The position numbers were made by a program, and so were the translations under genes. 34,888 nucleotides of DNA from Synergistaceae bacterium (GTDB lineage: Bacteria; Synergistota; Synergistia; Synergistales; Synergistaceae), in NCBI GenBank assembly GCA_018063805.1, contig JAGPAO010000001.1, forward strand, positions 1 through 34,888. The letters are read 5' to 3'. Shown here piece after piece: positions 12,064 to 31,511 of the stretch. How positions within the stretch are numbered: the stretch's first letter is position 1; each line of letters starts with the position of its first letter. A model generated the notes under the pieces. The model was not told the origin of the DNA. It saw nothing but the letters and a program-made list of their open reading frames with translations, and ran no database searches.

Positions 12064-13026
12064 ATGCTCGCTATTTTTAAGACTTGTCCTGAGGGACTTG
12101 TCGAAATTGATATAGAGAAGGACGAAATAGAGAGCGGCAGCTGGTTTAATCTGATTCGGCCGACGGCGCACGAACTGCGTCTGGTTTCGGAGATCACACA
12201 GGTTGAATTGGATGCGCTGCGTGCGGCATTGGACCAAGAGGAGGCCTCCCGTATTGAGGCGGAGGACGAGTATATTCTTGTCCTGACGAATATCCCCAAG
12301 AAGGGGGAGGATAATCCTTACGGAAACGATACAATCCCGCTTGGAATCATCGTAACCCCAAAGTTTATCATCACCGTATGTCTTGAAGAAAACGGAGTCC
12401 TGAGTGATTTTAATCCGATGCACCATCGGTTTTTCAGCACCTATAAGCGCACCCGTTTTTTGTTTCAGATACTGTACCGCACCTCCATGATGTTCTTGAA
12501 GGATTTGAGGAGCATGAATCGCCGGACGGATGATATCGAGCAGGCGCTTCGGAAATCGATGAAAAATGAGGAGCTCTTTCAACTGCTGGATATGCAGAAG
12601 GGGCTGACCTACTTTACGGTGGCTTTGCGTTCCAATCGATCTGTTATTGAGCGGCTGATGCGTTTTTGTTCCAACCCGCAAGTAAGCCATATGATCAAAC
12701 TGCGGGAGGAGGACGAGGAGCTTTTGGAGGATGTCCGTATTGAATACGATCAGGCTATTGAGATGGTTCAGATGCACGGCGATGTCCTTGCCAGTATGAT
12801 GGATGCCTTTGCGTCCGTCATCTCCAACAATCTGAACATGGTTATGAAGTTTTTGGCGTCCGTCACCATTGTGATGGCCATTCCCACGATGATCGCCAGT
12901 TTCTTCGGAATGAATGTGCCCGTCCCTTGGCAAGGGGAGGGGCTTGGGTTTTTATTTGTCTTTATGATCTCCTCCATGCTGACATTGGTCGTGACGATTC
13001 TTCTTTGGAAAAAACGTTTGTTTTAG
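12064..13026 (+). CDS. corA: CorA-family magnesium/cobalt transporter
   Basis: C-terminal two TM helices with the signature FFGMNV (GMN motif). Cytoplasmic N-domain of typical length. Confidence 0.85.
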   Translation: MLAIFKTCPEGLVEIDIEKDEIESGSWFNLIRPTAHELRLVSEITQVELDALRAALDQEEASRIEAEDEYILVLTNIPKKGEDNPYGNDTIPLGIIVTPKFIITVCLEENGVLSDFNPMHHRFFSTYKRTRFLFQILYRTSMMFLKDLRSMNRRTDDIEQALRKSMKNEELFQLLDMQKGLTYFTVALRSNRSVIERLMRFCSNPQVSHMIKLREEDEELLEDVRIEYDQAIEMVQMHGDVLASMMDAFASVISNNLNMVMKFLASVTIVMAIPTMIASFFGMNVPVPWQGEGLGFLFVFMISSMLTLVVTILLWKKRLF

Positions 13027-13105
13027 GCTGCTGTGTTGCAGTGGGTTTAGTTGGAAAAGCTACCTTGATATTTTTATTTCCTATCCTGATATAGAATGTC
13101 GGAAA

Positions 13106-13141
13106 CAAGAAAGAATGTCTTGAAAGAGATATTCTTTCTTG
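13106..13141. terminator. stem-loop between convergent corA and crp-like genes (possible bidirectional terminator)
   Basis: Perfect 11-bp arms CAAGAAAGAAT (13106-13116) and ATTCTTTCTTG (13131-13141) around a 14-nt loop. There is no long T tract. Confidence 0.45.
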
Positions 13142-13156
13142 AAACTTATTCTGCCA

Positions 13157-13816
13157 TTAGCGGTCATCACACTCACAGATCGCAATGATTCTACCCTTAA
13201 ATTGAATAATCCCCTCTTTACGCATTTTTGCAAGCTCTCTAGACAGTGATGGACGCTGGATTGCCAGAACTTCCGCCCATTCCTTTTTAGAAAAAGGAAG
13301 CACGATGGTATGGCTGTTTTGTCGTTTTTGCTCGACCCGTAAAAACTCCATAATACGTTCTCGGATACTTTTTAACGCAATGGTGTCGATTTTTTTCATC
13401 AAAACAATCGCCTTATGGGATATTTCCGCTAAGAAACGTTCTAAAAATAAAGGGCAAATACTGCATAAATCAAGGATAGCGTCTTTGGTGAAGCTGATAA
13501 TGAGTACATCTGTTTTTGCTATAACCGTCATTGGGAATGTGTGGTTGGAGTAAAAGAGCAAATTACTGCCGATGGTATCTCCCCTTGTGAAATTTGCTAT
13601 TGTCATAATGTCACCGGATAATTCAAATGTTTGAACGGAAACAATACCGGTTACGATTGCATCAAGGCTGGAGCATTTCTCGCCTTTTAAATAGATAATC
13701 GCGTTTTTTTTGATTTTCTTGGCAAAAGCACGGGAAGGAATGTTGAGATTCATCAAGATACTCAGGTCGACAAGCTGGAACAACGGTATTTGGTAAATGT
13801 ATTTTAATATATCCAT
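13157..13816 (-). CDS. Crp/Fnr-family transcriptional regulator (cNMP-binding-like domain + C-terminal HTH)
   Basis: The beta-roll region (GEKCSSLDAIVTGIVSV...GDIMTIANFTRGDTIG) and the C-terminal HTH (SKKEWAEVLAIQRPSLSRELAKMRKEGII) fit Crp/Fnr architecture. The gene is markedly AT-rich. Confidence 0.8.
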   Translation of the reverse strand: MDILKYIYQIPLFQLVDLSILMNLNIPSRAFAKKIKKNAIIYLKGEKCSSLDAIVTGIVSVQTFELSGDIMTIANFTRGDTIGSNLLFYSNHTFPMTVIAKTDVLIISFTKDAILDLCSICPLFLERFLAEISHKAIVLMKKIDTIALKSIRERIMEFLRVEQKRQNSHTIVLPFSKKEWAEVLAIQRPSLSRELAKMRKEGIIQFKGRIIAICECDDR

Positions 13817-13847
13817 CAGTTATTTCCGCCTTTACCCCTTAAGAAGT

Positions 13848-13861
13848 GTAACGTTGGTTAC
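13848..13861. promoter_or_regulatory. short inverted repeat in the crp/cupin divergent promoter region (candidate regulator site)
   Basis: GTAAC-GTTG-GTTAC, with 5-bp arms. It does not match the classical TGTGA-N6-TCACA or TTGAT-N4-ATCAA sites. Confidence 0.2.
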
Positions 13862-13924
13862 TCTTTTTCCCTTTGATTTACACTATACTACAGTCATCAA
13901 TTATATGGAAGGGGAAGTAGCATT

Positions 13925-14245
13925 ATGGAAATCCGGTATCCGTTCAAACAGACAAACGAAAAATTGGTGGAAAAAATACTTGATGACGATGCTGTGATGA
14001 TCAACCACATGATATTAAATAAAGGAGACTCGTTACCGGAGCATTATTCTAACTCTAATGTTTATATGATCGTGGTTCGTGGTACTGTAACCTTGCAGTT
14101 AGAGGACAATATTGCAAAGAAATACGAAAACGGAAGCATTGTAAATATTCCCTATAACGTCAAGATGCATGTCTCAAACAGCGATGCGGAGCAACTAGAG
14201 TTTTTTGTTGTAAAAGCGCCAAGTCCGAGACTTTATCCTGCCTGA
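13925..14245 (+). CDS. small cupin-domain protein
   Basis: 106 aa with a beta-barrel pattern (GDSLPEHYSNSNVYMIVVRGTVTL...IVNIPYNVKMHVSN) typical of cupin_2. Shine-Dalgarno GGAAGGGGAAG. Confidence 0.7.
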   Translation: MEIRYPFKQTNEKLVEKILDDDAVMINHMILNKGDSLPEHYSNSNVYMIVVRGTVTLQLEDNIAKKYENGSIVNIPYNVKMHVSNSDAEQLEFFVVKAPSPRLYPA

Positions 14246-17126: not shown

Positions 17127-18254
17127 ATGTATCGCTTAAAGGCGCTGATTATTAAGGAATTTATAGAAGTCTTCCGAGATCGCGGCTCCATTGCGCTCAT
17201 GATTATCATGCCCGTCATGCAGCTATTGATCTTTGGGTTTGCGATCAACACGGACGTAAAGCATCTCAGAACGATTGTTTTGGATCAGTCCCGAAGCCAG
17301 GAGAGCCGCCAGATGCTGGAGTCCTTTCGTGCGAGCAACTATTTTGACATTGTGGCTCGGGCGGAGAACTTTGAAGAGTTGAATCGCGCTGTTGACCAAG
17401 GGGATGTGAAGGTTGGAATTGCATTCCCCCCCGATTTTGCCCCTCGTCTTTTGGGGGGTAGGGAGGCGCAGGTGCAGGTTATCGTCGATGCCACGGACAG
17501 CACTTCCGCATCGTCTGCGATTGCCGCTGCCTCCATGATCGGCACGCTGCAATCGCAAAAAATCCAGCAAAACCGCCTGATTGCGGCAGGGATCACCGTG
17601 CCCAAATCCTTAGTCGATGTTCGCATTCGTCCGTGGTACAATCCCGATTTTATTACTTCCTGGTATATGGTTCCCGGGATTATGGGCATACTGTTGACGA
17701 TGACGCTGGTTATGATGATGAGCATTGCGATCGTGCGAGAGAGCGAGCAGGGGACGTTGGAGCAACTGCTGGTTACGCCGATGCGTCCCTGGGAGTTGCT
17801 GTTGAGCAAAGTGCTTCCTTACATTGTCATTGGATATGTGCAGGTTTTTGTCGCCGTTTTTGTCGGCATCGTAGTTTTTAAAATGCCTTTTCGGGGCAGC
17901 ATGCCGCTGTTTTTCGGGGTGACGATCTTTTTTATTTTTGCCTCTCTTTCTTTGGGGATTTTTCTCGCGACGCTCTCTTTCAGCCAGATGCAGGCGCAGC
18001 AGATGGGGATGCTGATCCTGCTGCCCAGCGTTTTGTTATCCGGATTTATCTTTCCGTTGGAGGCGATGCCCCGTATTTTTCAGTGGATCAGCCGCGCTCT
18101 GCCGGTCACTTATTATGTCCGTATTGCCAGGCAGATCATTTTAAAAGCGGGAGGAATAGAATATATTTGGCGCGATGTGCTGTCGTTAATCGTTTTCTCT
18201 GTGGTTGTTTTTTCCGTCAGCATTGTCTTTTTTAAAAAGCGTTTTGTGCCGTGA
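17127..18254 (+). CDS. ABC-2 type transporter permease (YbhR/YhhJ-like)
   Basis: N-terminal TM helix, a large extracytoplasmic loop, then a C-terminal 5-TM bundle (RESEQGTLEQLLVTP motif). Confidence 0.85.
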   Translation: MYRLKALIIKEFIEVFRDRGSIALMIIMPVMQLLIFGFAINTDVKHLRTIVLDQSRSQESRQMLESFRASNYFDIVARAENFEELNRAVDQGDVKVGIAFPPDFAPRLLGGREAQVQVIVDATDSTSASSAIAAASMIGTLQSQKIQQNRLIAAGITVPKSLVDVRIRPWYNPDFITSWYMVPGIMGILLTMTLVMMMSIAIVRESEQGTLEQLLVTPMRPWELLLSKVLPYIVIGYVQVFVAVFVGIVVFKMPFRGSMPLFFGVTIFFIFASLSLGIFLATLSFSQMQAQQMGMLILLPSVLLSGFIFPLEAMPRIFQWISRALPVTYYVRIARQIILKAGGIEYIWRDVLSLIVFSVVVFSVSIVFFKKRFVP

Positions 18255-18256
18255 TC

Positions 18257-19936
18257 CTATCCCTTGAGTTTGTCTTGTCCCTTCTTTTCATTTGAGAGAA
18301 CTTTGATATCACTTCTTTCTTTTATGAAAGGGGCTTTTTTTATGTAACGCTGAATCGATGTCTTCACTTCCGGTTGGAGGGAATGATATCCGTTGTTACT
18401 CCAAAAATCAGCGACCATCCCGTTTTTTTCACTTGGTATATACTCGCCGATTATTTCTGTGATTTTCATTAGGCTGAGCTGTTCCTCTATTGTCTGGAGA
18501 AAAGTTTTTTCAACACCGCGTCCCATAACGCGGCAGCTCATTAAAAAAGTGTCGACTCGTGCCGTTGTTCCTGATATTTCCGCAAGGGCGAGTATGATCT
18601 GTCCGTGCGCGCCGAATTTATCGCTGAGTGATCCAATCCATAGGTGCCATGTTGGGGATTCCACCTGTTGCAGCATTTGAGTCTCGGTCAGACGCCGCGT
18701 CGTCAGGTTGAACTGATTGGTCTTTTGTGTGAGCTGTGCTGCACGCGGAATGTCCGCAAGGGTTAGGGGGTTGATGGTGAGCACCATTTCAAGGGAGCGT
18801 AGGTATTCTTCCATAGAGCCAAACTGAGCTTTTAATCCCTCTCTCTTCTTCTCTGTTTGGTACTGTTCCGTTTTTTTTAGATCTTCATCGGTTAGGTGCA
18901 GTGTAAGGAAATAGTCGCGAGCAATATCATGGATAAAAGACTCCAACTGGCTGCTGTCCTTCGGGAATACAGGTACGGTTACCTCCGGCAGCGCGATGCG
19001 CACGGCCTCTTGCTCCACAGGGTTGTCGTCGATAAACACGAAGGAGCCCAACCCGATATTGAGTTGTTCGGCTATCTTCTCAATATTTATTGGTTTAGGA
19101 TCCCAATTGGCGTAAAAGAGGGCGAAATCCTCCTCTTTTAAAATCATATCCGGGTGTTGCCGAAAGGGGATGAGGGCGTCCTCCTCGTTGTTTTTAGAGA
19201 CAACGGCAAGCAATATCCCTTGGTTTTTTAGCTCTTTGATGCGCTTCTGGAATTGCCTGTATTCGGATCCGTTCTTGGTTGGTGCAAGAGCGATGCCTCC
19301 AACGCCGTTTTCTCCAATAATACCTCCCCAGAGGGTGTTATCCAAGTCTAGGATGAGGCATTTTTTGCGAATGCCGCGTACGGCATTTAAGATCCGCTGT
19401 ATCTCTTTGAGCAGGAGCGCTTCGCCTGCTTGAGAGAAGGGAATGTTCCCCAACAGCCACATTCGCGGGTTGTAGAATCTCTCCCTTCCCAGATTGGCAG
19501 CCAGTTCCTCTAAATCCAGAACGGGGATGTTTCGCGTTTCAAGTTCCTGCCGCCAGAAGGTACATATGGCCCGTTCCGTGCGCACGGATAGAAGCGGTTG
19601 ATGTTTGCGCTGCGGTATATCCAGCGTAGAGACGAAAAAAAAGAATTCCGGGTGCGCTTTAGTGTAACTTTCTATCAGATCCAAATACGGAAGCAGGGTT
19701 GATTTTCCCGCATCCTGAGATTCCATCCCCTCATCCCCCAGTAGTTCCGTTCCATCCAGCAGCAGAAATACAATGCCCTCTTTTAATGCGTTTAATTCGG
19801 ATGCGGGGTTAGCAAGCTCCTGTACCCACGTGTTGTACCCTGCGGGAGTGTAGATTGTCTCCGCAACTTCCTTACTCGCACCAAGGCGGGCAGCAAGGCT
19901 CGCTATATTGATATTAGAGAGCAGTGAGAGTGTCAT
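18257..19936 (-). CDS. FkbH-like protein (HAD-IIIC phosphatase domain + C-terminal acyltransferase-like domain)
   Basis: HAD motif I LILDLDNTLWGG, then VVSKNNE and FIDDNPVE. The C-terminal block FLMSCRVMGRGVEKTFL is characteristic of FkbH-type glyceryl-ACP loaders. The start overlaps the FkbM-like stop as ATGA. Confidence 0.8.
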   Translation of the reverse strand: MTLSLLSNINIASLAARLGASKEVAETIYTPAGYNTWVQELANPASELNALKEGIVFLLLDGTELLGDEGMESQDAGKSTLLPYLDLIESYTKAHPEFFFFVSTLDIPQRKHQPLLSVRTERAICTFWRQELETRNIPVLDLEELAANLGRERFYNPRMWLLGNIPFSQAGEALLLKEIQRILNAVRGIRKKCLILDLDNTLWGGIIGENGVGGIALAPTKNGSEYRQFQKRIKELKNQGILLAVVSKNNEEDALIPFRQHPDMILKEEDFALFYANWDPKPINIEKIAEQLNIGLGSFVFIDDNPVEQEAVRIALPEVTVPVFPKDSSQLESFIHDIARDYFLTLHLTDEDLKKTEQYQTEKKREGLKAQFGSMEEYLRSLEMVLTINPLTLADIPRAAQLTQKTNQFNLTTRRLTETQMLQQVESPTWHLWIGSLSDKFGAHGQIILALAEISGTTARVDTFLMSCRVMGRGVEKTFLQTIEEQLSLMKITEIIGEYIPSEKNGMVADFWSNNGYHSLQPEVKTSIQRYIKKAPFIKERSDIKVLSNEKKGQDKLKG

Positions 19937-20793
19937 CGAGCGCTGGCCATGAGAAGAACCCCATTTGTTTTAAAGCGATAGCCCATGGGGGCAAGAAAAT
20001 GGGTGATTTCGCGCAAGTCCTTTCGTCGATGGTAAACACAAACAAGAACATCGGGCTTGAATTTTATAAGTGTTTGGGCTCCTCCCATGAGTGCTTGTAG
20101 CTCGGCGCCCTCAATATCCATTTTGATTAAATCAACCGAGGATATTTTATGCGCTTCCACCAGCTCATCTAGAGTGGTCGCTATCATCACGCTAGATGTT
20201 GAAGAAGGATCTGATATAAATTCAGTGATATTGATTGAATGGGTACTTGCCTTGAGAACGCCTTCTTTGTTTGTATCCATTAATATTTTTTCGTGGATAA
20301 AGACTTTCCCCGTTTTTATTTCTTTTTCAAACGTTTTATAAAGCCCCTCACATGCGCGTTTAACCGGTTCAAAAAGATGCAGTTGAGAAACACTGTGTCG
20401 GATTTTGAGGGAGAAGAGCCCCTCGCATGCGCCGATATCAAAGACAATATCGTTCGGATTGGGGGTGTACAAATCAAGATAGTTATGTGGGTTATTAGGA
20501 AGAAGCTCTTTGTACAGAGTAGAAATCGTCTCAAGGGCATATTCCTTTGGCCAATAGAGCGTGTTTCCATCAAGAAGGGTAATTTCGGTCATGTCCTGAT
20601 CTTCTTTCGCGGAGACAATGGGGTGGACATCTTTGTCTATGCCGAATTGGTTTATGAAGGCCCGTTTGATGGGGTAGCTGATCAACAGAGTAGGAAAGGC
20701 GCTCCAAGGAATATCGCTGCCGCGCCCGAATAGTTTGGATACAAGATTTCCAATATGTTCTTTAAAATAGGAATAGGTTCTGTTTTCTACCAT
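19933..20793 (-). CDS. FkbM-family SAM-dependent methyltransferase
   Basis: SAM motif FDIGACEGLFS, LHLFEP and the C-terminal IKMDIEGAELQAL. The ATG at 20793 follows GGAGGT. The 89 upstream codons of the track ORF are Arg/His-rich and overlap the next gene, so I excluded them. Confidence 0.8.
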   Translation of the reverse strand: MVENRTYSYFKEHIGNLVSKLFGRGSDIPWSAFPTLLISYPIKRAFINQFGIDKDVHPIVSAKEDQDMTEITLLDGNTLYWPKEYALETISTLYKELLPNNPHNYLDLYTPNPNDIVFDIGACEGLFSLKIRHSVSQLHLFEPVKRACEGLYKTFEKEIKTGKVFIHEKILMDTNKEGVLKASTHSINITEFISDPSSTSSVMIATTLDELVEAHKISSVDLIKMDIEGAELQALMGGAQTLIKFKPDVLVCVYHRRKDLREITHFLAPMGYRFKTNGVLLMASAR

Positions 20794-20804
20794 GGTGATA
20801 CCTC

Positions 20805-21452
20805 CTAAATTTTTACCACTCTGGCGGGGTAGCCCATCGCTGTGCAATTTTCGGGCACGTTTTGCAACACGATGCTTCCCATGCCGATGGTCGTCCCGCT
20901 GCCGATGGAGAGACCTTGTAAAATTGCGGACTGTACGCCAATGAGACAGCGCTCCCCGATGGAAACGTCTCCGGAAATATTGACGCTGGGCATGATGGAA
21001 GTGAAGTCTCCGACTGTTGTGTCGTGTCCTACTTGAGACCCGGCATTGATGAACACGCATCGTCCCAGTGCAGCGTCAACGCTAACAAAACAGAAACGAG
21101 TGATGATAACACCCTCTCCTATTTGCACACCGGGTTCGACGCACGATGAGGGATGGATAATGGTAGGGAAGGAAATTTCCGGATTTGTTTTTAGCTCGTT
21201 GTAAAGCGACGCTTTTGCGGCCGGGCTTGCAAAACCCAGCACAACGGAGACCGGAGTTTTCCGTTGCAGAAGATAGTCTTTGTTTCCGAGAACGGGAAGT
21301 CCTGAGATTTCTGTATGCGGTGTTGCGTCATCATCAACGAATCCTAAGATATCCCACGTTGTTTTTGATCGATCCATATCCTGTACCAAGGCCAAAATCT
21401 CTCGTCCGAGACCGCCGGCACCGTAGATAACCAGTTGCTGCAAAAAACTCAC
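20805..21452 (-). CDS. NeuD/PglD-family sugar acyltransferase (N-terminal Rossmann-like domain + left-handed beta-helix hexapeptide repeats)
   Basis: LVIYGAGGLGREI...ILGFVDDD, followed by hexapeptide repeats (IGEGVII, VFINAGSQVGHDTTVGDF, ISGDVSIGERCLIGVQSAILQGLSIGSGTTIGMGSIV). The start is GTG 21452 (GTGA overlap) or TTG 21443. Confidence 0.8.
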   Translation of the reverse strand: MSFLQQLVIYGAGGLGREILALVQDMDRSKTTWDILGFVDDDATPHTEISGLPVLGNKDYLLQRKTPVSVVLGFASPAAKASLYNELKTNPEISFPTIIHPSSCVEPGVQIGEGVIITRFCFVSVDAALGRCVFINAGSQVGHDTTVGDFTSIMPSVNISGDVSIGERCLIGVQSAILQGLSIGSGTTIGMGSIVLQNVPENCTAMGYPARVVKI

Positions 21453-22189
21453 CCCTTTATGCTGTGTCCGCCATCCAAAACGAACGTTTGTCCTGTGATC
21501 CAGCGGCTTTCCTCAGAGAGTAAAAACGCGATCAAATGGGCTGCATCCTCCGGAGATCCAAGCCCCAAAGGATATCCTTGTTCAAGATTCGCCCTCTGTT
21601 CTGCGGTCATTTTATTGATGAATTCCATGGACATATCGGTTTGGATGACCCCCGGAACGACGATATTGAGCCGGATACCTCTTGGAGCCAACTCTGCTGC
21701 GGCCGCGGGTAAAAAACCCTCCAAGGCACCCTTTGTCGCTGCGTAGATCGTTTTTCCGATAGCCCCCTCGTGCGCGGCTAAAGAGGAGATCAGGACAAAG
21801 GAGGCTCCGTTTTCTGAGATTCTGCTTTTTTTAGAAAAACAGCGCACCAGTTCAAACGCGGAAAAGGTGTTTAATTCAAAGAGCTGCCGTATGTCCGCCG
21901 GTTTACACTGAGATAGAGGCGCTGTTTTTTGAGCTCCGGCACAGTAGACGAGGCCGGAAATGCCCCCTACTTGTTTTTGGATCTGCTCGGCGAAGGGCTC
22001 AATATTTTCCGGTAGCGCAAAATCACATGGGATAAAGGCCAGATCGGATACATCGCTGCCCGAGTAGGCCTCTTCAAGGGATTGTTGCGTTCGAGAACTG
22101 AGAACGAGCGATGAGCCCTTTTTCCTTAATTCATCGGCCGTTGCTCTGCCGATGCCGCGGCTTGCTCCAGCAATCAGGATCGTGCTCAT
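21449..22189 (-). CDS. short-chain dehydrogenase/reductase, FabG-like (3-oxoacyl-ACP reductase type)
   Basis: Cofactor motif IAGASRGIGRA and catalytic YAATKGAL (YxxxK). 246 aa. Confidence 0.85.
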   Translation of the reverse strand: MSTILIAGASRGIGRATADELRKKGSSLVLSSRTQQSLEEAYSGSDVSDLAFIPCDFALPENIEPFAEQIQKQVGGISGLVYCAGAQKTAPLSQCKPADIRQLFELNTFSAFELVRCFSKKSRISENGASFVLISSLAAHEGAIGKTIYAATKGALEGFLPAAAAELAPRGIRLNIVVPGVIQTDMSMEFINKMTAEQRANLEQGYPLGLGSPEDAAHLIAFLLSEESRWITGQTFVLDGGHSIKG

Positions 22190-22425
22190 GGTTTTTCTTT
22201 TGATGCCGTAACAACGGCATAAAGATCTCCCACGGTATTTAGCGTCAAGAAGGTTTCGACATCAAGAGCGACTCCGCAGCGTTCCTCCAAGAAAACGAGA
22301 ATGGCAAAGCCCGTCAGAGAGGACCAAAAGTCCGCTGATTCGCGAAAATCGGACTCCATTGTGACCGTTTCCGGTTCCACTTCCAGAATGTCCGCCAATT
22401 CCTTTATAAAAAGTTCTTCCGTCAT
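22186..22425 (-). CDS. acyl carrier protein (ACP-2, atypical SSL attachment motif)
   Basis: 79 aa, acidic, four-helix pattern. DFWSSLTGFAILVFLEE occupies the position of the DSL phosphopantetheine site. ATGA overlaps on both sides. Confidence 0.65.
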   Translation of the reverse strand: MTEELFIKELADILEVEPETVTMESDFRESADFWSSLTGFAILVFLEERCGVALDVETFLTLNTVGDLYAVVTASKEKP

Positions 22426-23504
22426 TTGCTCGCCTCCGCAATGGGATATTCAATAACACCGGGGCAAATGCAAGGGCCAATAGAAAAGGAAACGGCACCT
22501 AAAGAAAGGCCTCCTCCGAACCCTGCAGCCAAGACTTTTAATTTTTGAGATTCTATTTGTTGATGAAGCTCCGATGCCAGTGTAACGGGGATTGTAGGGG
22601 AGCTTGAATTTCCGTATTTATCAAGGCTAATGGGGAGAGTTTTGGGATTAAAGCCTATTTTTTTAGCTACCTGGCGGATCATATAGAGGTTTGCCTGGTG
22701 AAGGGCAAGGACGTCAAAATCTGCCGCCGTCTTGTTGATCCGTGACATTAAGGTGTTTAAGCAGCTGGGGGCTCGCGTTACCACAAAGTTAAAAACAGCC
22801 ATTCCATCCATGCGCATATCAATGGGGCGGCGAATGCCTCCATCCGGGTATTCCCGATAGAGAGCGCTCTGTTCGTTGATCATTCCGCGAGAGCCACCTT
22901 CCGGAACGCAAAGGGCTTCACCTAGAGAACCGTCGGTTTCAAATTCAAAATGCCAGGGGATGCCTTCCGGATCAGGAACCAATAAAGTAGCTGTTCCCGC
23001 ATCCCCGAATAAAAGAGCTGTCGTTTTATCTTTGGGTGAGACAAAATAGCTGTGTGTTTCCGCGTCCAAGAGAAGCACCGGTTTGTTAAGGGATTGAACC
23101 ATCATGCTTCCGATCCAAAGCCCGTAAACATAGCCGGAGCAAGCCAGATCAACATCTAATGCGGCTACTTGTTTTGAGAGCCCCAATTGATGCTGTGCTT
23201 GCGTGCTGTTGTTGGGGAGAGGGTAGTCGGGGGTTTGTGTCACAAAGACCACACCTCCGATTTCATCCGGTTGATAGGCCCCCTCTGATTGAAGCTTGCG
23301 CGCAGCAAAAACGGCTAAATCCAGGGCGGTTACACCGCTGTCCCTCGGACAAACGCGCCTCTTCTCAACACCTGTTGCCCGAATAACACCCTCAAGTTCT
23401 TCTCCAAAGAGTTCTAATCCAAAGATGCGATTGTCGATGACGTTGGAGGGGACTGCGGCACAGATCCCCGCAATCCGCACTCCGGAAGAGATCGCTTCGG
23501 TCAT
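22422..23504 (-). CDS. KAS III (FabH-like) 3-oxoacyl-ACP synthase
   Basis: Catalytic triad contexts are present: DLACSGYVYGL (Cys), ALHQANLYM (His), YGNSSSPTIP (Asn). C-terminal GFGGGLSLG. Confidence 0.85.
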   Translation of the reverse strand: MTEAISSGVRIAGICAAVPSNVIDNRIFGLELFGEELEGVIRATGVEKRRVCPRDSGVTALDLAVFAARKLQSEGAYQPDEIGGVVFVTQTPDYPLPNNSTQAQHQLGLSKQVAALDVDLACSGYVYGLWIGSMMVQSLNKPVLLLDAETHSYFVSPKDKTTALLFGDAGTATLLVPDPEGIPWHFEFETDGSLGEALCVPEGGSRGMINEQSALYREYPDGGIRRPIDMRMDGMAVFNFVVTRAPSCLNTLMSRINKTAADFDVLALHQANLYMIRQVAKKIGFNPKTLPISLDKYGNSSSPTIPVTLASELHQQIESQKLKVLAAGFGGGLSLGAVSFSIGPCICPGVIEYPIAEASK

Positions 23505-23719
23505 GATTGTTGCTTGTCCGAGGCCGCGAGATTTAGAATATCGTTGACCGATCGAATACTTGCAATGTGTTCCATCGGAATGCTAAACCCCGCTTCGTCG
23601 AGAGCCATAATAATTTGCAAGACTTTAAGTGAATCCAGCGGTGCGGAGTTATCCTCTGTGATGTTTTCGCAGCCATTCCCCAGGATTGGTTTTATTAATT
23701 CTAAAAGTTGTTCTCTCAT
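23501..23719 (-). CDS. acyl carrier protein (ACP-1)
   Basis: 72 aa with a canonical LDSLKVLQIIMALDE phosphopantetheine site. Shine-Dalgarno GAGG. Confidence 0.75.
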   Translation of the reverse strand: MREQLLELIKPILGNGCENITEDNSAPLDSLKVLQIIMALDEAGFSIPMEHIASIRSVNDILNLAASDKQQS

Positions 23720-23789
23720 TTTTATAACCTCATTTCATGCAATGGTGAGGGGCAATGACCCCGTCATTTATCGATAGGATCGTGCTATT

Positions 23790-24200
23790 TTAATTGATCA
23801 GCACGATCTCAACGAGTCCAATATGTTTGGAATATAAAAAGATAACCTCGTTTCCTCCGAGCGCCGGTGCCGGAGATGCATTTATAATCTCAAGGAATCC
23901 CGCTTTCTGCAATGTCTTTTTTTGCGCGTCCCATTCCGTCTTCTCTATAGAAAAACAAGCATGGTACGGAGTAGCCCCCATTTTATCCAGCAATTTTGAG
24001 ACGGGGGATTCAGGGCACAACGGCTCTACTAATTCAATCACATTTCCAGCTGCGTCAGAGAGCAACAGAATACGCACCTTGCGCAGCAGGTCTTCTGTAA
24101 CCGATGAGGATTGCGTGAATCCGAGCGCGATAAAAGCGGAAAGCGCATCCTCTATGGAGGTTACCGCCCATCCCCAATGAGCCAAGGATAGATTTGTCAT
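23790..24200 (-). CDS. VOC-family protein (glyoxalase / methylmalonyl-CoA-epimerase-like fold)
   Basis: 136 aa with paired beta-alpha-beta-beta-beta modules (LAHWGWAVTSIEDALSAF..LGF; VIELVEP...YHACFSIE...GFLEI). It is the first gene of the minus-strand operon. Confidence 0.65.
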   Translation of the reverse strand: MTNLSLAHWGWAVTSIEDALSAFIALGFTQSSSVTEDLLRKVRILLLSDAAGNVIELVEPLCPESPVSKLLDKMGATPYHACFSIEKTEWDAQKKTLQKAGFLEIINASPAPALGGNEVIFLYSKHIGLVEIVLIN

Positions 24201-24439
24201 GGTTGTCAGAACCTCCTCATTATATCTGCTAATTGTTGCTATATGACCTATTTTAGCATGTGTTGCTTATATTCTTCGCACAGCCTCTGTGCGGAAACGT
24301 CATCTTGCAAGCTTGTTTCTTGTAGTAGTTATCGCCTTCTTTCGGTATTTTTATGTGCTATGATTAGATGGTATCTACCAAAAAGAAGGCTATTAGGGGA
24401 AATAGAGGGGTCTTTTATAGAGAAAGAGGTGCGCTTTGT

Positions 24440-26284
24440 ATGGATAAAAAGCAAAAACAATTTTCGATAGGGTATTTTTTTGTCACGCTTTTGATTATGT
24501 GGCTGTTTAACGATCTTGTCTTTCGTCCTCTTGTAATAAAAGAGACAGAGGTAAGCTACAGCCAATTCCTTCAGTATTTGGCGGACAATAAGGTCAGCAA
24601 GGTTTCTTTGGGTGCGGATCGCTTTACGTTCTATCTTAAGGATGGTGTGGACGGAGCGGCTACCGTTCGAAATGCCGTGCGAGTAGAGGATCCCGGTCTC
24701 GTAAAGCGGCTGGAAGAGGCTAAAGTCGATTTTTCCGGTGTCAATCAGACCCGGGGGCTCTTGGAACAGCTCATGGGTTGGGTTGTGGCTTTCCTGCCGC
24801 TTATCCTCATCTGGTACTTCGTTTTTCGCCGCATGTCGGGCGGTGGGGGAAGTGTGCTATCTTTCGGGAAGAGCAATGCGCAGGAAATCCAAGGGGAGAT
24901 GACCGGGATTAAATTCCAGGATGTCGGTGGTGTCGGAGAGGCGGAAACGGAGCTTCGTGAAATCATTGAATACCTAAAGGATTCCTCGCGTTTTGACCGA
25001 CTCGGAGCCAAGCTCCCCAAGGGCGTTTTGCTGGTGGGTCCTCCCGGGACGGGGAAAACCCTTTTGGCAAAAGCCACTGCAGGAGAATCTGGGGTTCCTT
25101 TTTTCTCCCTCACAGGCTCCAGCTTTGTGGAGATGTTTGTCGGGGTGGGGGCAGCCCGGGTGCGCGATCTTTTTGAACAGGCAAAGAAGAAGGCTCCTTG
25201 TATTATTTTTATCGATGAGATTGATGCCATTGGGCAGGCTCGATCTACAATTGCGGCGATGAGCGGTAACAGTGAGAGGGAAAATACGTTAAATCAGCTC
25301 CTCGCGGAAATGGATGGTTTTCAACCAAATTCAGGTGTGGTGATTATGGCGGCGACCAATCGGCCGGAAATTTTAGATCAGGCGTTGGTGCGCCCCGGAA
25401 GGTTTGATCGGCAGATACAAGTCACCCTGCCGACAGAGGAGGGGCGGCTGGAAGTCTTAAAGATCCACGCCCGCAATATCCCCATGGATGGAGACGCGGA
25501 TTTAAGGCGCATTGCTAAAATCACCTCCGGATTTTCCGGGGCGGATCTGGCAAACATCCTCAATGAGGCCTCGTTGCTCGCTGTTCGGCGCGAAGCGAAA
25601 ACGGTCGAAATGGAAGATTTGGATTTAGCGATTGAGCGCGTTGTGGCCGGTTTGCAGAAAAAAACGCCCCTTTCTCCGCAGGTGCGGCGAAAAGTGGCTT
25701 ACCACGAAGTAGGGCATGCGCTTTCCGCTTACTACCTCAAACATGCCGATCCGGTGCACAAAATCAGCATCATCCCCACAGCGAAAGGGGCTCTTGGATA
25801 CACGATGCAGATGCCGGAGGAGGACCAGTATTTAATCACCGAGGAGGAGCTGAAAACTCGGATGGCGGTCATGCTGGGGGGGCGCGCGGCGGAACTCTTA
25901 ATTTTTAATGAGGCCTCTACCGGGGCCAGTAATGACCTGGAACGTGTGACAATGTTAGCACGCCGTATGATCACGGAATTTGGCATGTCAGAAAAATTAG
26001 GGCCGGTTCGCTATTCCAATACGGAGGGGATGTACCTTCAAACGGGATCGACCAACAGGACGGACTTAAGCCCCAAGACGCTCGCCTGTATTGATGAAGA
26101 GATACGCGATCTCATTAAAGACGCACAGCAGCGTTCCATGGACATTCTGATAGAACATCGGGCTGTGCTGGATGCAGTGGCGAAGCTGCTGCAGGAGAAA
26201 GAAGTCATATTGGGCGAGGAAATTAAAAAAATAGCGGAAAAACTGGATGAGGCATACGATATAACGGGAGGAATCAGCGAGTGA
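24440..26284 (+). CDS. ftsH: ATP-dependent zinc metalloprotease FtsH
   Basis: Two N-terminal TM helices, Walker [14 protein letters not shown], Walker [33 protein letters not shown] and zinc motif HEVGHAL. The ATG at 24440 follows AGAAAGAGGTG. Confidence 0.95.
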
Positions 26285-27612
26285 AACTGACAGTCATTGG
26301 AACGGGGTACGTGGGACTTGTGGCCGGAGCCTGCTTTGCAAAATTTGGGAATGAAGTGCACTGTGTGGATAAGGATCCGCGCAAACTTGCGATTTTAAGA
26401 GAGGGGAAATCCCCTTTTTACGAACCGGGGCTTGGGGAAATACTCACCGCGTGTTTGAGAGAGAGGCGAATTTTTTTCACGGATGACCTTCTCTCCGTCA
26501 TGCCGGGGACGGATGTTTGCTTGATTGCTGTCGGAACGCCTACCGATTGTTCCGGTTGTGCGGCGGATCTTCAATATGTTGAAGCGGCGGCGCGTGAAAT
26601 TGGTGCTTGCATGAATGAATATAAACTGGTCGTCACAAAATCTACGGTGCCCGTCGGTACAGCGGAAAAAATCAGAAAGGTGATCCAGGAAGAACTGGAC
26701 CGCCGCGGCGTTCAAATCCCCTTTGACGTGGCATCCAACCCGGAATTTTTACGCGAGGGTGCAGCCATAAGGGATTTTCTGGAGCCTGATCGCCTTGTCT
26801 TCGGCGTTGACAGTGACAGAGCTGCGAGAATCTTATATCATCTGTACTCTTTTATCCCTCAAGAACGTCTTTTTAAAATGGATATTCCCTCCGCAGAGAT
26901 GACGAAGTACGCCGCAAATGCGATGCTGGCGCTGCGCATTTCATTTATGAATGAAATCGCTCAAATCTGTGAGCGCACAGGGGCGGATGTGGAGAATGTC
27001 CGCATGGGAGTCGGTACGGACAGCCGCATAGGGGATCAATTTTTACGGGCAGGGTGCGGGTTCGGCGGCTCTTGTTTTCCCAAGGATGTGCGGGCGCTGC
27101 AGGATTTTGCGCGCGGTGCCGGTTATGAGTCCAGGATCCTTGCTGCGGTAGAACACGTCAATGAAAAACAAAAGGAAATCTTGTACGATAAGCTGGAGCA
27201 GCACTTTGGTTCCCTTGCGGGCAAGAAAATTGCGATCTGGGGGCTTTCCTTTAAACCTAAAACATCCGATGTGCGCGAGGCTCCGTCGCTCGTACTGATT
27301 CACAAATTACTGGAACAGGGAGCCACGGTGCAGGTGCATGACCCGGAGGCAATGGACGAAGCGCGCCTAACCTTGGGGGATATTCCGGGGATAACCTATG
27401 TGGAGCAGCACTTTGATGCCCTAAACGGCGCGGATGCGCTTGTTTTGGTTACGGAATGGGATATTTATCGCCAGCCGGATTTTAACCGTGTGCAATCAAT
27501 GCTTTCTTCGCCTGTGATTGTGGATGGACGTAACCTCTATTTGCCGGAAGAGTTAATCGGGCTTGGTTTTTATTACTATGGGATTGGGCGTCAGTTGAAC
27601 CGTTCGGTTTAA
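26281..27612 (+). CDS. ugd: UDP-glucose 6-dehydrogenase
   Basis: N-terminal VIGTGYVGLV...GKSPFYEPGL, catalytic GFGGSCFPKD and C-terminal WGLSFKP.TSDVREAP. The GTG start overlaps the ftsH stop as GTGA. Confidence 0.9.
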   Translation: MKLTVIGTGYVGLVAGACFAKFGNEVHCVDKDPRKLAILREGKSPFYEPGLGEILTACLRERRIFFTDDLLSVMPGTDVCLIAVGTPTDCSGCAADLQYVEAAAREIGACMNEYKLVVTKSTVPVGTAEKIRKVIQEELDRRGVQIPFDVASNPEFLREGAAIRDFLEPDRLVFGVDSDRAARILYHLYSFIPQERLFKMDIPSAEMTKYAANAMLALRISFMNEIAQICERTGADVENVRMGVGTDSRIGDQFLRAGCGFGGSCFPKDVRALQDFARGAGYESRILAAVEHVNEKQKEILYDKLEQHFGSLAGKKIAIWGLSFKPKTSDVREAPSLVLIHKLLEQGATVQVHDPEAMDEARLTLGDIPGITYVEQHFDALNGADALVLVTEWDIYRQPDFNRVQSMLSSPVIVDGRNLYLPEELIGLGFYYYGIGRQLNRSV

Positions 27613-29514: not shown

Positions 29515-29564
29515 TGAACGCGTGAGGGGGCATTGCATATCCCTCACGCGTTCATTTTTTTTTT
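29515..29564 (+). terminator. strong intrinsic terminator (shared by the convergent genes)
   Basis: Perfect 14-bp stem TGAACGCGTGAGGG (29515-29528) with CCCTCACGCGTTCA (29541-29554), a 12-nt loop, then 10 T (29555-29564). The T-run overlaps the stop of the minus-strand gene. Confidence 0.85.
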
Positions 29565-31041
29565 AAACTTTTTTCTTTGCTAAGACCACCACAGGGACAA
29601 GCAGTCCGCAAAGGCCTAAAAAGCCAAGTCCGCTGTTGCAACTTCCGCCACTGCTGTCACCGTTATTTTTTGACGTGTATATCTGCGCTAAAACGGCGCT
29701 ATCCGTCATGCCGACTTTTGTCGCGCACATTTTGAGCGTCGTATCTATCGAAACGGTGAACGGCTCGATGTACGTTTTTCGCGCTGTGTTTGCCACGGGG
29801 TCGCTGCCGTCGAGCGTATAGTAAATCGTTGCGTCCAATGTGGCAGAGGTAAGAGTCACTGTCTGTTCGCTGCTATAAAAACCTCCTGGGGGGGTGGCTT
29901 TTGGTGTGCCCACGGTGTTCGTTGCTTGCGTGTACGTCTGTGTCAAAACGGCACTATCCGTCACACCTGCTTTTGCCGCGTAGGCTTTGAGTGTTGTGCC
30001 CATCGCAACGGTGAACGGTGTGCTGTACGTTTTTCGTGCTGTGTTTGCCACGGGGTCGCTGCCGTCGAGCGTATAGTAAATCGTTGCGCCCGATGTGGCG
30101 CAGGTAAGCGTCACCGTCTGCTCACTGTTATACGAGCCTCCGGGGGGGCTGGCTATTGGTTCGGCCACGTTCGTTGCTTGTGTGTACGTTGCTGTCATGA
30201 TGGTGCTTGGGGTCATCCCCGGTTTCTTTGCATAGGCCTTGAGCGCCGTTCCCATTGGGACAGAAAACGGTGCGGAGTATGTTTTGCGCGTGGAAGAGGT
30301 TACGGGGTTGCTCCCGTCGAGTGTGTAGAACATCGTCGCGCCTGTTGTGGAACAGGCAAGCGTGGCTGTTTGCGCACCGGTGTATGAACCGCTAACCGGG
30401 GTGGCGGTAGGCGTGTCGACCAAGGTTGTCGATATCGCAACGATTTTGCTGAAATAAGGAGCCCAATCCGATTGATAATTACTCACGCGATTGGCAGGTG
30501 CGTAAATGGTTACGGCATTCGCACTCATAAAAGCAGCGTTGCCCAGTGCAGGGGGCGTGTCCGTGTTTATGGTTACGCTTGTCAGGTTCGTGCAGTCACG
30601 AAACGCATTCCCGCCAATGTTTGTTAATTGAGTGAGGCCGGATAGATCCACCGTCTTAAGTGCGCTGCAATATCGAAATGTTCCCTCTCCAATGCTAGTT
30701 AAGTTGACGAGGCTGGACAAATCAAGATCTGTGAGAGCCGTAGGCCCCAAAAGGGCGTTATTCGGAATGAACGTTTGATTGTTTCTCAGATCTAGCTTAA
30801 ATGGGGCTGTAAGCCCTCTTAATTTATCCCAGTCGGTTGTTTCAAGGGCACTACCTGTAATGATCAACGTGTCGCCTGTGTTGTAGGTGGGATTGATGGT
30901 TGTCCCTGTGGTTTTTGTTATCGGGACATCTGCTGCTGATGCTCCTGTGGAGTGCATCGAGGCTATCAATAAAACGGTAAAAATGACTGCTATGAGCGTT
31001 TTAGAAAGCTTTTTCTTTGCTTTTCCTTTTTGCTGTGTCAT
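29563..31041 (-). CDS. cell-surface protein: signal peptide, BspA-type leucine-rich repeats, 3 tandem Fn3-associated/chitobiase-C-like domains, Synerg-CTERM-like sorting tail
   Basis: Signal/anchor KKKLSKTLIAVIFTVLLIASMHSTGASA. LRR_5-like units (FRYCSALKTVDLSGLTQLTNIGGNAFRDCTNLTSVTI). Three 85-aa repeats (GSY...TVTLTC...ATIYYTLDGSDP...YS.PF.V...TLKAYA.K.G...S). C-terminus SSGGSCNSGLGFLGLCGLLVPVVVLAKKKV. The ATG at 31041 follows GGAG. Confidence 0.8.
   Translation of the reverse strand: MTQQKGKAKKKLSKTLIAVIFTVLLIASMHSTGASAADVPITKTTGTTINPTYNTGDTLIITGSALETTDWDKLRGLTAPFKLDLRNNQTFIPNNALLGPTALTDLDLSSLVNLTSIGEGTFRYCSALKTVDLSGLTQLTNIGGNAFRDCTNLTSVTINTDTPPALGNAAFMSANAVTIYAPANRVSNYQSDWAPYFSKIVAISTTLVDTPTATPVSGSYTGAQTATLACSTTGATMFYTLDGSNPVTSSTRKTYSAPFSVPMGTALKAYAKKPGMTPSTIMTATYTQATNVAEPIASPPGGSYNSEQTVTLTCATSGATIYYTLDGSDPVANTARKTYSTPFTVAMGTTLKAYAAKAGVTDSAVLTQTYTQATNTVGTPKATPPGGFYSSEQTVTLTSATLDATIYYTLDGSDPVANTARKTYIEPFTVSIDTTLKMCATKVGMTDSAVLAQIYTSKNNGDSSGGSCNSGLGFLGLCGLLVPVVVLAKKKV
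29655..30420 (-). repeat. three tandem 255-bp (85-codon) repeats inside the surface-protein gene
   Basis: The period was measured from the identical string TGTGTTTGCC... at 29785 and 30040 (255 nt apart). A 51-nt stretch is identical between the two promoter-distal units. The third unit (about 30165-30420) is more diverged. The outer boundaries are approximate. Confidence 0.8.
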
Positions 31042-31511
31042 CTTCGTTCTCCAATCCTTCGTTTCGTTATGTTTTTCTGCCTGTGAGCGCAATCGCACTG
31101 GAATAATAACCGGCAAGCCTCCTTCCGAAGTTGTTCTGATTACTGGCCTACGAGAAAGGTTTGTCCGGCGCCTCCGTTTCCTTGAACCTAATTTCGCAAG
31201 AATACCATTACTCCATTCTGTTCTTTGCTTTGTTCTATTGTATCAAAGATAACCATGAAAAAAACAAAATAGAAGGAAAATTCGAAATAAATTTTCTCTT
31301 GTGTTTTTCGTGTCGTAGGCAATGGCTAACGAGCCCTCACGTGCTTGATTTTATTTTAAAAATATGTAAACTATAGGGAGAAAACTAACTGTAACGGAAC
31401 TAAGATTTCTTTGTCTTGCTAAGAGCGGGATGTTTGGTTTGCTTGATCGATATTGCAATGTAGAAGTGCTGTTCGTGAGTCAGATTTTAATCGAAGAAAT
31501 CAGGTGGTTTT

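Follow-up and report, generated by a model that had tools for sequence, protein, structure and literature searches.

The viosamine island of Pseudomonas syringae pv. tabaci (vioA, vioM, vioT, vioS, vioB, vioR, and acp) provides dTDP-N-(3-hydroxy-1-oxobutyl)-2-O-methyl-viosamine for flagellin glycosylation (PMC3927599). Pseudaminic acids bearing N-glyceroyl and di-O-methylglyceroyl groups occur in Tannerella forsythia and Campylobacter jejuni (PMC5378307; PMC3068675), with the genetic basis of the N-glyceroyl group having been described in the 2017 T. forsythia paper as unknown and as "a major challenge" (PMC5378307). C. jejuni NCTC 11168 makes N-(2,3-di-O-methylglyceroyl) pseudaminic acid, with only Cj1295 having been tied to that group (PMC3068675). 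In this strain, the segment Cj1298-Cj1304 includes cj1302, an fkbH-domain gene of the flagellin glycosylation locus, and cj1301, annotated as an epimerase (PMC7099621), as well as Cj1299, corresponding to acpP2 (PMC6109747). Here, an eight-gene cassette at positions 18257-24200 of a 34,888-nucleotide stretch from a Synergistaceae bacterium (contig JAGPAO010000001.1 of assembly GCA_018063805.1; the whole 34.9-kb stretch is referred to as the window) is compared with these systems. With a probability of roughly three in four, the cassette is an acyl carrier protein (ACP)-dependent N-acyl donor module for an amino sugar of a glycan, accessory to surface-glycan biosynthesis. The acyl group itself would most likely be small, hydroxylated, and methylated.

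Organization of the Cassette

The cassette corresponds to one tight operon of eight open reading frames (ORFs), listed here from the first gene onward.

23790-24200, minus strand: VOC/glyoxalase-fold protein, first operon gene, 136 amino acids; Pfam Glyoxalase_4
23501-23719, minus strand: ACP1, 72 amino acids; Pfam PP-binding, DSL phosphopantetheine site
22422-23504, minus strand: KAS III-type condensing enzyme, 360 amino acids; Pfam ACP_syn_III and ACP_syn_III_C
22186-22425, minus strand: ACP2, 79 amino acids; Pfam PP-binding, SSL site
21449-22189, minus strand: FabG-like short-chain dehydrogenase (SDR), 246 amino acids; adh_short_C2
20805-21452, minus strand: NeuD/PglB/VioB-family left-handed beta-helix acyltransferase, 215 amino acids, GTG start; TIGR03570, PglD_N
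19933-20793, minus strand: FkbM-family S-adenosylmethionine-dependent methyltransferase, 286 amino acids; TIGR01444, Pfam Methyltransf_21
18257-19936, minus strand: FkbH-like HAD-IIIC phosphatase/glyceryl transferase, 559 amino acids; TIGR01686

Examination of these ORFs revealed 4-nt start/stop overlaps at five junctions (19933/19936, 21449/21452, 22186/22189, 22422/22425, and 23501/23504), with 11 nt (20794-20804) and 70 nt (23720-23789) separating the genes at the two remaining junctions. This minus-strand organization, together with the coordinates and the five overlaps, was as reported in an earlier reading of the stretch from its letters (hereafter, the sequence-only reading). Likewise, profile searches (Pfam, TIGR01686, TIGR01444, and TIGR03570) returned each of the family calls made in that reading, and the catalytic motifs it had quoted in the KAS III, SDR, FkbH, FkbM, and ACP sequences were all present. 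In the case of the methyltransferase, the mechanical ORF extends to 21060, with gene calls on the identical contigs placing the start at 20793 (MVENRTY).

At least six independent metagenome contigs carry the cassette at 99.5-100% identity and with like housekeeping neighbors, such that an assembly artefact is ruled out. On another contig of the same species (L009), the KAS and FkbM genes appeared frameshifted, and phase variation was considered as an explanation; this was rejected, given that the interruptions correspond to runs of N at scaffold joins.

Homologous Modules in Glycan Loci

When an FkbH alignment was used to scan GTDB species representatives, 80 loci from many phyla were recovered. 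The window proteins were mapped onto related loci by single-query tblastn (E < 1e-4, coverage > 0.4-0.5), a procedure with which absences of NeuD, DegT, and glycosyltransferase genes from distant loci are unreliable. All of the FkbH contexts that were opened proved to be glycan loci. Homologous modules were found in at least six phyla, either among genes encoding DegT, a PglC-like phosphoglycosyltransferase, and glycosyltransferases, Wzx, and Wzy, or in nonulosonic acid (NulO) loci. The module comprising NeuD, ACP, KAS, ACP, SDR, and FkbH, with or without VOC, usually has a PglC-like gene immediately upstream and a DegT gene nearby, and nearly all complete loci contain one NeuD-type transferase per module. 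Loci with this module include the following.

Synergistaceae: L016, L017, and L019
Thermotogae: L025
Acidaminococcaceae: L029
Clostridia: L034
Saccharibacteria metagenome-assembled genome (MAG): L038
Treponemataceae: L044
Bacteroidales: L091

In Desulfovibrio vulgaris DP4, a hexapeptide transferase, VOC, ACP, and FkbH are encoded within a NeuB/CMP-NulO synthetase/DegT/KpsC-S locus. In Cloacibacillus, the order is DegT, PglC-like protein, hexapeptide transferase, ACP, GT4 glycosyltransferase, UDP-glucose 6-dehydrogenase (Ugd), ACP, VOC, ACP, KAS III, SDR, FkbH, GFO, glycosyltransferase, Wzy, and Wzx. A Synergistota MAG (L011) presents DegT, PglC, ACP, NeuD, and FkbH, followed by five glycosyltransferases, and in L012, ACP and FkbH are appended to a complete legionaminic acid-type pathway. 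Finally, a metagenome locus (L096) encodes DegT, PglC, FkbM, VOC, KAS, SDR, ACP1, NeuD, FkbH, and a GT4 glycosyltransferase, and is essentially the eight genes of the window set in a full glycan locus.

The comparison of gene neighborhoods across Synergistota and other phyla that had been called for thus revealed a conserved module in glycan loci. The observation in the sequence-only reading that no polyketide synthase (PKS), nonribosomal peptide synthetase (NRPS), or glycosyltransferase is in view holds for the window, where family searches across the 34.9 kb detected no PKS, NRPS, glycosyltransferase, or amino-sugar gene. As a trait of the system, this observation does not stand, since homologous modules lie in glycan loci. 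That reading had also considered that orthologous cassettes might sit in glycan or NulO loci and be associated with a known acyl substituent; the location was indeed as considered, a known substituent was not.

In the Saccharibacteria locus (L038 1335-7215, from an uncultured Candidatus Saccharibacteria MAG), a member of the CPR/Patescibacteria holds the full NeuD-KAS-ACP-SDR-ACP-FkbH-VOC module together with a PglC-like gene, which is noteworthy given the reduced metabolism of such organisms.

Two readings had initially been left open, namely, N-acylation of a sugar and formation of a small diffusible metabolite. In the latter case, the FabH-like enzyme would join glyceryl-ACP and a beta-ketoacyl thioester, as in RK-682 and agglomerin formation, yielding a tetronate, butenolide, or O-methylglycerate compound that would be exported by the neighboring ABC system. 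FkbH, an ACP, and a FabH-like enzyme constitute the minimal tetronate set, the window contains no glycan gene, and 2 nt separate the end of a YbhG/ABC-2-type exporter gene from the fkbH stop codon. Against this, orthologous modules lie in DegT/PglC/glycosyltransferase/Wzx/Wzy or NulO loci in many phyla, PKS-size ORFs were found in only one of 44 loci with KAS and FkbH homologues (675 kb in total), and the cassette acyltransferase is a bona fide member of the NeuD/VioB family of sugar N-acyltransferases rather than an Agg4-type enzyme. Moreover, the ABC operon is found in relatives without the cassette, and a sister species retains only a NeuD-like gene in the corresponding chromosomal slot. 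As such, a diffusible tetronate is very unlikely, while sugar N-acylation is strongly supported by the comparative context.

The single locus with PKS-size ORFs (L027 12161-21563, from a Thermoguttaceae MAG) contains ORFs of 1276 and 2208 amino acids, the longer of which bears a ketosynthase-like GMGCRAPG motif. FkbH probably has a genuine polyketide role in this locus, which could serve as a useful outgroup.

The NeuD-Like Acyltransferase and the FkbM Methyltransferase

The NeuD-like protein passes the TIGR03570 model of the NeuD/PglB/VioB family (199.2 bits; cut-off 160.8 bits) and matches the PglD_N and Hexapep domains. Its best match in the PDB is VioB (7txp, a viosamine N-acetyltransferase), followed by WeeI, PerB, and the acetyltransferase domain of Neisseria PglB. 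Homologues sharing 44-54% identity adjoin DegT and PglC-like genes; the window itself holds no dehydratase or aminotransferase genes. By homology, the predicted acceptor is a nucleotide-linked 4-amino-4,6-dideoxy-type sugar, the pathway for which (i.e., a dehydratase, a DegT aminotransferase, a PglC-like initiating transferase, and glycosyltransferases) is proposed to be encoded elsewhere in the genome.

Because the NeuD-like protein also shows weaker matches to LpxA and LpxD and because the window shows no acceptor pathway, the acyl group could be imagined to be built as proposed below and then passed to something other than a glycan sugar, such as a lipid A-type glucosamine, a polyamine, or an aminoglycoside-like metabolite. 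The LpxA and LpxD matches (59-69 bits) are, however, far under the relevant cut-offs (207-242 bits), in contrast to the TIGR03570 score, and the neighbors of the homologues are DegT and PglC-type genes. An acceptor of this sort is thus highly improbable.

The methyltransferase passes TIGR01444 (71.5 bits; cut-off 37.7 bits) and Pfam PF05050 (60.7 bits; cut-off 22.7 bits), and contains the FkbM motif DIGACEG at position 119. An FkbM homologue is also encoded in L096, the otherwise similar glycan locus described above.

FkbH, ACP1, and the VOC Protein

The FkbH-like protein passes both the TIGR01686 family model (310 bits; cut-off 146.65 bits) and the TIGR01681 HAD-IIIC model (73.8 bits; cut-off 35.75 bits), and contains the motifs DLDNT (197-201) and SCRVMGRG (467-474). 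In an alignment of 22 homologues, residues D197, D199, T201, K248, D303, D304, and C468 were invariant, such that the premise of a glyceryl-ACP, which called for intact HAD residues and a catalytic cysteine, survives. The N-terminal and HAD portions of the protein match Bacteroides fragilis BF1531 (PDB 3slr). FkbH relatives are numerous (6,134 clusters at 50% identity and E <= 1e-30) and are mostly stand-alone proteins of about 550 amino acids that match over their full length. Beyond the species, the nearest of these share 50-56% identity and come from Synergistaceae, Cloacibacillus, Pyramidobacter, and Desulfovibrio. An FkbH-like ORF is also found on pSymB of Sinorhizobium meliloti 1021 (631307-632433; L177 9001-10127), with about 41% identity over residues 141-517, and occurs in about 40 S. 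meliloti records.

ACP1 presents its DSL site at position 29, and its gene overlaps the start of the KAS III gene by 4 nt. When all small carrier proteins from the fetched loci were clustered, three informative types were discerned. The first is a general FkbH-partner type, encoded no more than about 100 bp from fkbH in some 60 loci. The second, a Synergistota/Treponema type, includes window ACP1 and the sole ACP of two FkbH-only loci (L011 and L018). The third includes ACP2 and occurs only in loci also holding KAS. This clustering thus points to ACP1 as the glyceryl carrier and to ACP2 as going with KAS and SDR. ACP1 is therefore the predicted carrier loaded by FkbH, yielding a putative glyceryl-ACP.

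The VOC protein matches Glyoxalase_4 (E 3.5e-9). Its best PDB matches are 3hdp and 2qh0, Clostridium acetobutylicum entries annotated as putative "glyoxalase I", with which its ligand positions (H8/E56/H80/E131-type) align. The weak match to the methylmalonyl-CoA epimerase model TIGR03081 (45 bits) falls under the equivalog cut-off of 114.95 bits, with only the fold and the H/E/H/E ligand pattern being shared with that enzyme. VOC accompanies FkbH both with and without a nearby KAS. It is tentatively proposed that the VOC protein might act as an alpha-epimerase or isomerase on the glyceryl thioester.

KAS III, ACP2, and the SDR

The KAS III-type enzyme contains the motifs LACSGY (120), LHQAN (268), and YGNSSS (297), with the Cys-His-Asn triad (C122/H269/N299) being invariant in 12 orthologues. 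The enzyme falls short of the housekeeping FabH models, a further test that the glyceryl-ACP premise survives, scoring 162.5 bits against a cut-off of 292.1 bits for TIGR00747 and 211 bits against a cut-off of 249 bits for NF006829. Indeed, its closest solved structures are the orphan Burkholderia paralogues 4efi (198 bits) and 3gwa (170 bits), with true FabH proteins reaching at most 128 bits. ACP2 presents its SSL site at position 35 and is the predicted carrier of both extender and product, paired with KAS III and SDR. The SDR matches adh_short_C2 (E 3e-49), scores 146 bits with TIGR01830 FabG (cut-off 298 bits), and contains the motifs GASRGIG (8) and YAATK (149); it is predicted to be a 3-oxoacyl-ACP reductase.

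Proposed Pathway

Family membership and the conserved residues suggest that FkbH would dephosphorylate 1,3-bisphosphoglycerate, hold the glyceryl group on Cys468, and load this group onto ACP1. The VOC protein might then epimerize or isomerize the 2-hydroxyacyl thioester, this being a weakly founded assignment. In a step suggested only by gene linkage, KAS III would join the glyceryl primer and malonyl-ACP2 to give 3-oxo-4,5-dihydroxypentanoyl-ACP2, the 3-keto group of which would be reduced by SDR, resulting in a 3,4,5-trihydroxypentanoyl unit. FkbM would O-methylate a hydroxyl of either the acyl group or the sugar, and the NeuD/VioB-type transferase would pass the acyl group from the ACP to the amine of the sugar.

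Within this scheme, the glyceryl-primed extension to a C5 unit is the favored sub-mechanism, although the preference over two separate donors is weak and the assignment correspondingly tentative. More speculative still is the general form of the proposal, in which the glyceryl-ACP generated by FkbH, hitherto known only from polyketide and tetronate pathways, would be used as a primer in a large set of glycan loci spanning phyla. There, a dedicated KAS III would elongate this primer on a second ACP, yielding a C5 polyhydroxy acyl group (here, O-methylated) that would be N-linked to a bacillosamine- or viosamine-type sugar, creating a substituent not yet described.

One Joint Pathway or Two

The alternative in which the role in glycan N-acylation is the same involves two independent donor pathways, serving two different amines or sugars. 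In one branch, KAS III, ACP2, and SDR would convert acetyl-CoA and malonyl-ACP into (R)-3-hydroxybutanoyl-ACP2, in line with the proposal made for the viosamine island, while in the other, FkbH, ACP1, VOC, and FkbM would generate (O-methyl)glyceroyl-ACP1. One of these groups would be transferred by the NeuD-like enzyme of the window and the other by a transferase encoded elsewhere.

Both half-modules occur alone. Modules with FkbH, ACP, and NeuD but lacking KAS exist (L011, L018, and L001). A scan of metagenome contigs with a KAS alignment, so as to remove the bias of seeding with FkbH, identified 39 loci long enough to be judged, in nine of which KAS, ACP2, and SDR were present without FkbH. 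Each half is thus self-sufficient somewhere, which, like the fact that ACP1 and ACP2 are of two distinct types, speaks for two donors.

The same scan also provided evidence in the other direction. FkbH lies within 6 kb of KAS in 30 of the 39 loci. As a function of KAS identity to the window enzyme, this linkage was seen in 7/7 loci above 45% identity, 2/7 loci at 41-45%, and 21/25 loci at 40% or less, such that the KAS proteins nearest that of the window are uniformly linked to FkbH. Among the 30 FkbH-positive loci, VOC was found within 3 kb in 24 and SDR within 3 kb in 17. A neighbor-joining tree was built from 98 KAS homologues in the fetched loci, with an Escherichia coli FabH sequence serving only as outgroup. 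In this tree, which is rough and carries no support values, all members of the window KAS clade have FkbH where the contig permits, with clades having only KAS, ACP2, and SDR being separate.

Six rumen metagenome loci (L135, L136, L137, L150, L157, and L164, with L137 1851-9595 having been considered in detail) contain two neighboring N-acyl modules. The first consists of NeuD-SDR-KAS and the second of DegT-NeuD-ACP-KAS-VOC-GT2-FkbH-ACP, after which comes an Acyl_transf_3 gene. This side-by-side arrangement implies that the FkbH module has its own KAS and its own transferase, with no reductase. Together with the single NeuD-type transferase per module and the 4-nt overlap that couples translation of the ACP1 gene to that of the KAS gene and not to that of fkbH, the rumen modules favor a joint, glyceryl-primed pathway, for which the pairing of ACP1 with FkbH and of ACP2 with KAS by carrier type also counts. 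Two independent donors are accordingly considered unlikely, if well short of implausible.

At the same time, several points besides the isolated half-modules weigh against the glyceryl-primed extension and, in part, against the assignment of the cassette as a whole. The window contains no sugar-pathway gene, glycosyltransferase, or flippase gene. The predicted FkbH substrate is extrapolated from FkbH proteins of polyketide pathways to the glycan-type clade. Moreover, we know of no reported glycan with a trihydroxypentanoyl group. Where relevant products have been described, these are shorter or simpler, as the cj1302-containing flagellin glycosylation locus of C. jejuni 11168 (PMC7099621) is associated with an unextended C3 group, 2,3-di-O-methylglyceroyl (PMC3068675), and the viosamine island yields plain 3-hydroxybutanoyl (PMC3927599). 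The latter product and the N-glyceroyl and di-O-methylglyceroyl groups of pseudaminic acids (PMC5378307; PMC3068675) are, moreover, of the very kinds expected of the two branches of a two-donor arrangement.

The Chromosomal Slot in Related Synergistota

The slot between the ABC-2 permease gene and ftsH-ugd (18255-24367) differs among related Synergistota, as revealed by comparison with the corresponding regions of L174 (9092-10000), L175 (8976-10000), and L176 (9969-10000). In the sister species represented by L174, with flanks sharing 83-85% nucleotide identity with those of the window, the slot holds a lone gene.

L174 9104-9754, same orientation as in the window: stand-alone NeuD-like gene, 65% amino acid identity

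In more distant relatives, an ankyrin-repeat gene occupies the slot in one case and the slot is empty in another. One of these distant relatives (MAG GCA_031549185.1) keeps FkbH, ACP, and NeuD in a DegT/PglC/glycosyltransferase locus on another contig. Given the lone NeuD-like gene of the sister species, the remaining seven genes of the cassette can be viewed as an add-on supplying a different acyl donor. The transferase is therefore the anchor of the slot, with the other seven genes being a lineage-specific addition, as expected of a serotype-like difference in donor. The ABC exporter was considered as a component of the system and rejected, as relatives that lack the cassette nevertheless keep the ABC operon.

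Genomic Surroundings

Two features beyond the operon are of relevance.

24201-24367, no strand assigned: divergent intergenic region separating the leftward cassette from the rightward ftsH-ugd pair, with a ribosome-binding site and a TATAAT-like box
26281-27612, plus strand: Ugd gene, outside the operon, the sole sugar-related neighbor in the window

The operon promoter presumably lies in the intergenic region, where a GAGGAGG ribosome-binding site precedes the VOC ATG by 8 nt, with the TATAAT-like box found just upstream. A promoter scan of the region gave no signal above shuffles or chance, terminator-like sites were weak, and an Rfam search of 17800-24800 returned no match. At the other end of the cassette, the ABC-2 permease gene (plus strand, ending at 18254) and fkbH (minus strand, ending at 18257) converge, with 2 nt separating the stop codons; the sole terminator-like hairpin for the ABC operon (18312-18333, plus strand) falls within the fkbH coding sequence.

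The ftsH stop codon and the ugd GTG start overlap by 4 nt (26281-26284). This ftsH-ugd pairing is retained in sister species L174, with ugd missing after ftsH in the more distant L175 and L176. Ugd is possibly associated with the same glycan as the cassette; an Ugd gene is also found inside the homologous glycan loci L003 and L098. On the basis of FtsH, the organism belongs to Synergistota, the nearest named relatives being Aminiphilus circumscriptus (71%) and MAGs of Synergistaceae and Fretibacterium (70-73%).

Outside the cassette, the window is housekeeping in nature and nearly all on the plus strand, with genes encoding CheW, TldD, an amidase, RNase PH, L13/S9, an SSF transporter, CorA, the YbhG/ABC-2 exporter, FtsH, Ugd, TetR, and a BspA-like surface protein. 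For the last of these (29563-31116, minus strand), a surface location is predicted; its BspA-type leucine-rich repeats are followed by three near-identical CHB_HEX_C/Fn3_assoc repeat units and a hydrophobic C-terminal tail, and the protein could be a glycoprotein target. G+C content falls to 38% at 13001-14000, as compared to about 50% elsewhere, around a Crp-family regulator gene (13157-13816, minus strand) and a small cupin gene (13925-14245).

Comparison With Known Systems

The cassette is probably a widespread, biochemically uncharacterized variant of ACP-dependent amino-sugar N-acylation, here unusually detached from the sugar pathway. The statement in the sequence-only reading that no characterized pathway has this exact composition stands within the open literature searched. 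There, with subscription journals not being covered and earlier characterization being possible, FkbH was linked to glycans in a single paper, and only as the annotation of cj1302. As for the composition being unusual, the exact set is indeed uncharacterized in the literature covered. It is not rare, as orthologous modules lie in glycan loci of many phyla. Five of the genes match the viosamine island, which is characterized genetically and was not mentioned in the sequence-only reading (PMC3927599).

Polyketide pathways that employ FkbH (FkbGHIJK in methoxymalonyl-ACP formation, OzmB, and RkC/RkD/RkE) resemble the cassette in that the window protein passes the FkbH model TIGR01686 and conserves the DxDxT and Cys residues, and in having a dedicated small ACP, with the FabH-like partner being shared with tetronate pathways. 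They differ in that FkbI, FkbK, PKS, and Agg4/Agg5-type ring-processing enzymes are missing from the window, in that the window acyltransferase is of the NeuD type, and in that the context of the homologues is glycan-related. Specifically, family searches detected neither an FkbI acyl-CoA-dehydrogenase-like nor an FkbK 3-hydroxyacyl-CoA-dehydrogenase partner in the cassette or the window. With no PKS in the window or in 43 of the 44 homologous loci, and with its NeuD-type acyltransferase, the cassette does not qualify as a tetronate cassette.

The N-acetyltransferases PglD, VioB, PerB, and that of the PglB domain, which serve bacillosamine, viosamine, and perosamine pathways, share the fold of the NeuD-like protein (PglD_N and left-handed beta-helix), and the catalytic histidine aligns (GHD, H143); as in pgl loci, the window NeuD homologues adjoin DegT and PglC-like genes. 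These enzymes use acetyl-CoA, whereas the window gene sits among carrier-protein genes, which would imply an acyl-ACP or longer acyl donor. Neisseria PglB2, which makes 4-glyceramido-2-acetamido-2,4,6-trideoxyhexose on pilin, uses an ATP-grasp-type domain and not FkbH/ACP chemistry. The likeness here is functional only, lying in the class of end product, namely N-glyceroyl sugars of the bacillosamine type, which a PglC-like enzyme transfers.

The C. jejuni segment, in which a methyltransferase gene, fabH2, and a further ACP gene are annotated next to those listed at the outset, resembles the SDR-less FkbH module of the rumen loci, a likeness in gene content. The segment lacks SDR, and the acceptor there is a nonulosonic acid. 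Glyceroyl-type substituents affect host and phage recognition. The comparative data point to FkbH, ACP, and a NeuD-type transferase, optionally with VOC, KAS III, and SDR, as a testable route to such substituents; if true, N-glyceroyl sugars would owe their long-missing route to the simpler sets of FkbH, ACP, and NeuD. With its eight genes, the window carries this route in a compact and self-contained form, and the sister species that has the transferase gene only provides a natural "minus" control.

The closest likeness is to the viosamine island, compared here by its description. The KAS III (VioS), ACP, 3-oxoacyl-ACP reductase (VioR), VioB-type N-acyltransferase, and methyltransferase of the island correspond to five window genes, at 19933-23504 (PMC3927599). 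The island also carries the aminotransferase gene vioA and the glycosyltransferase gene vioT, both absent from the window, and is without FkbH, a second ACP, and VOC, all three of which are present in the window cassette. Thus, five of the cassette genes mirror the viosamine island, while the FkbH/VOC part is uncharacterized in glycans. As such, the cassette introduces no new principle but rather presents a known type of sugar-decoration cassette extended with chemistry borrowed from polyketide pathways.

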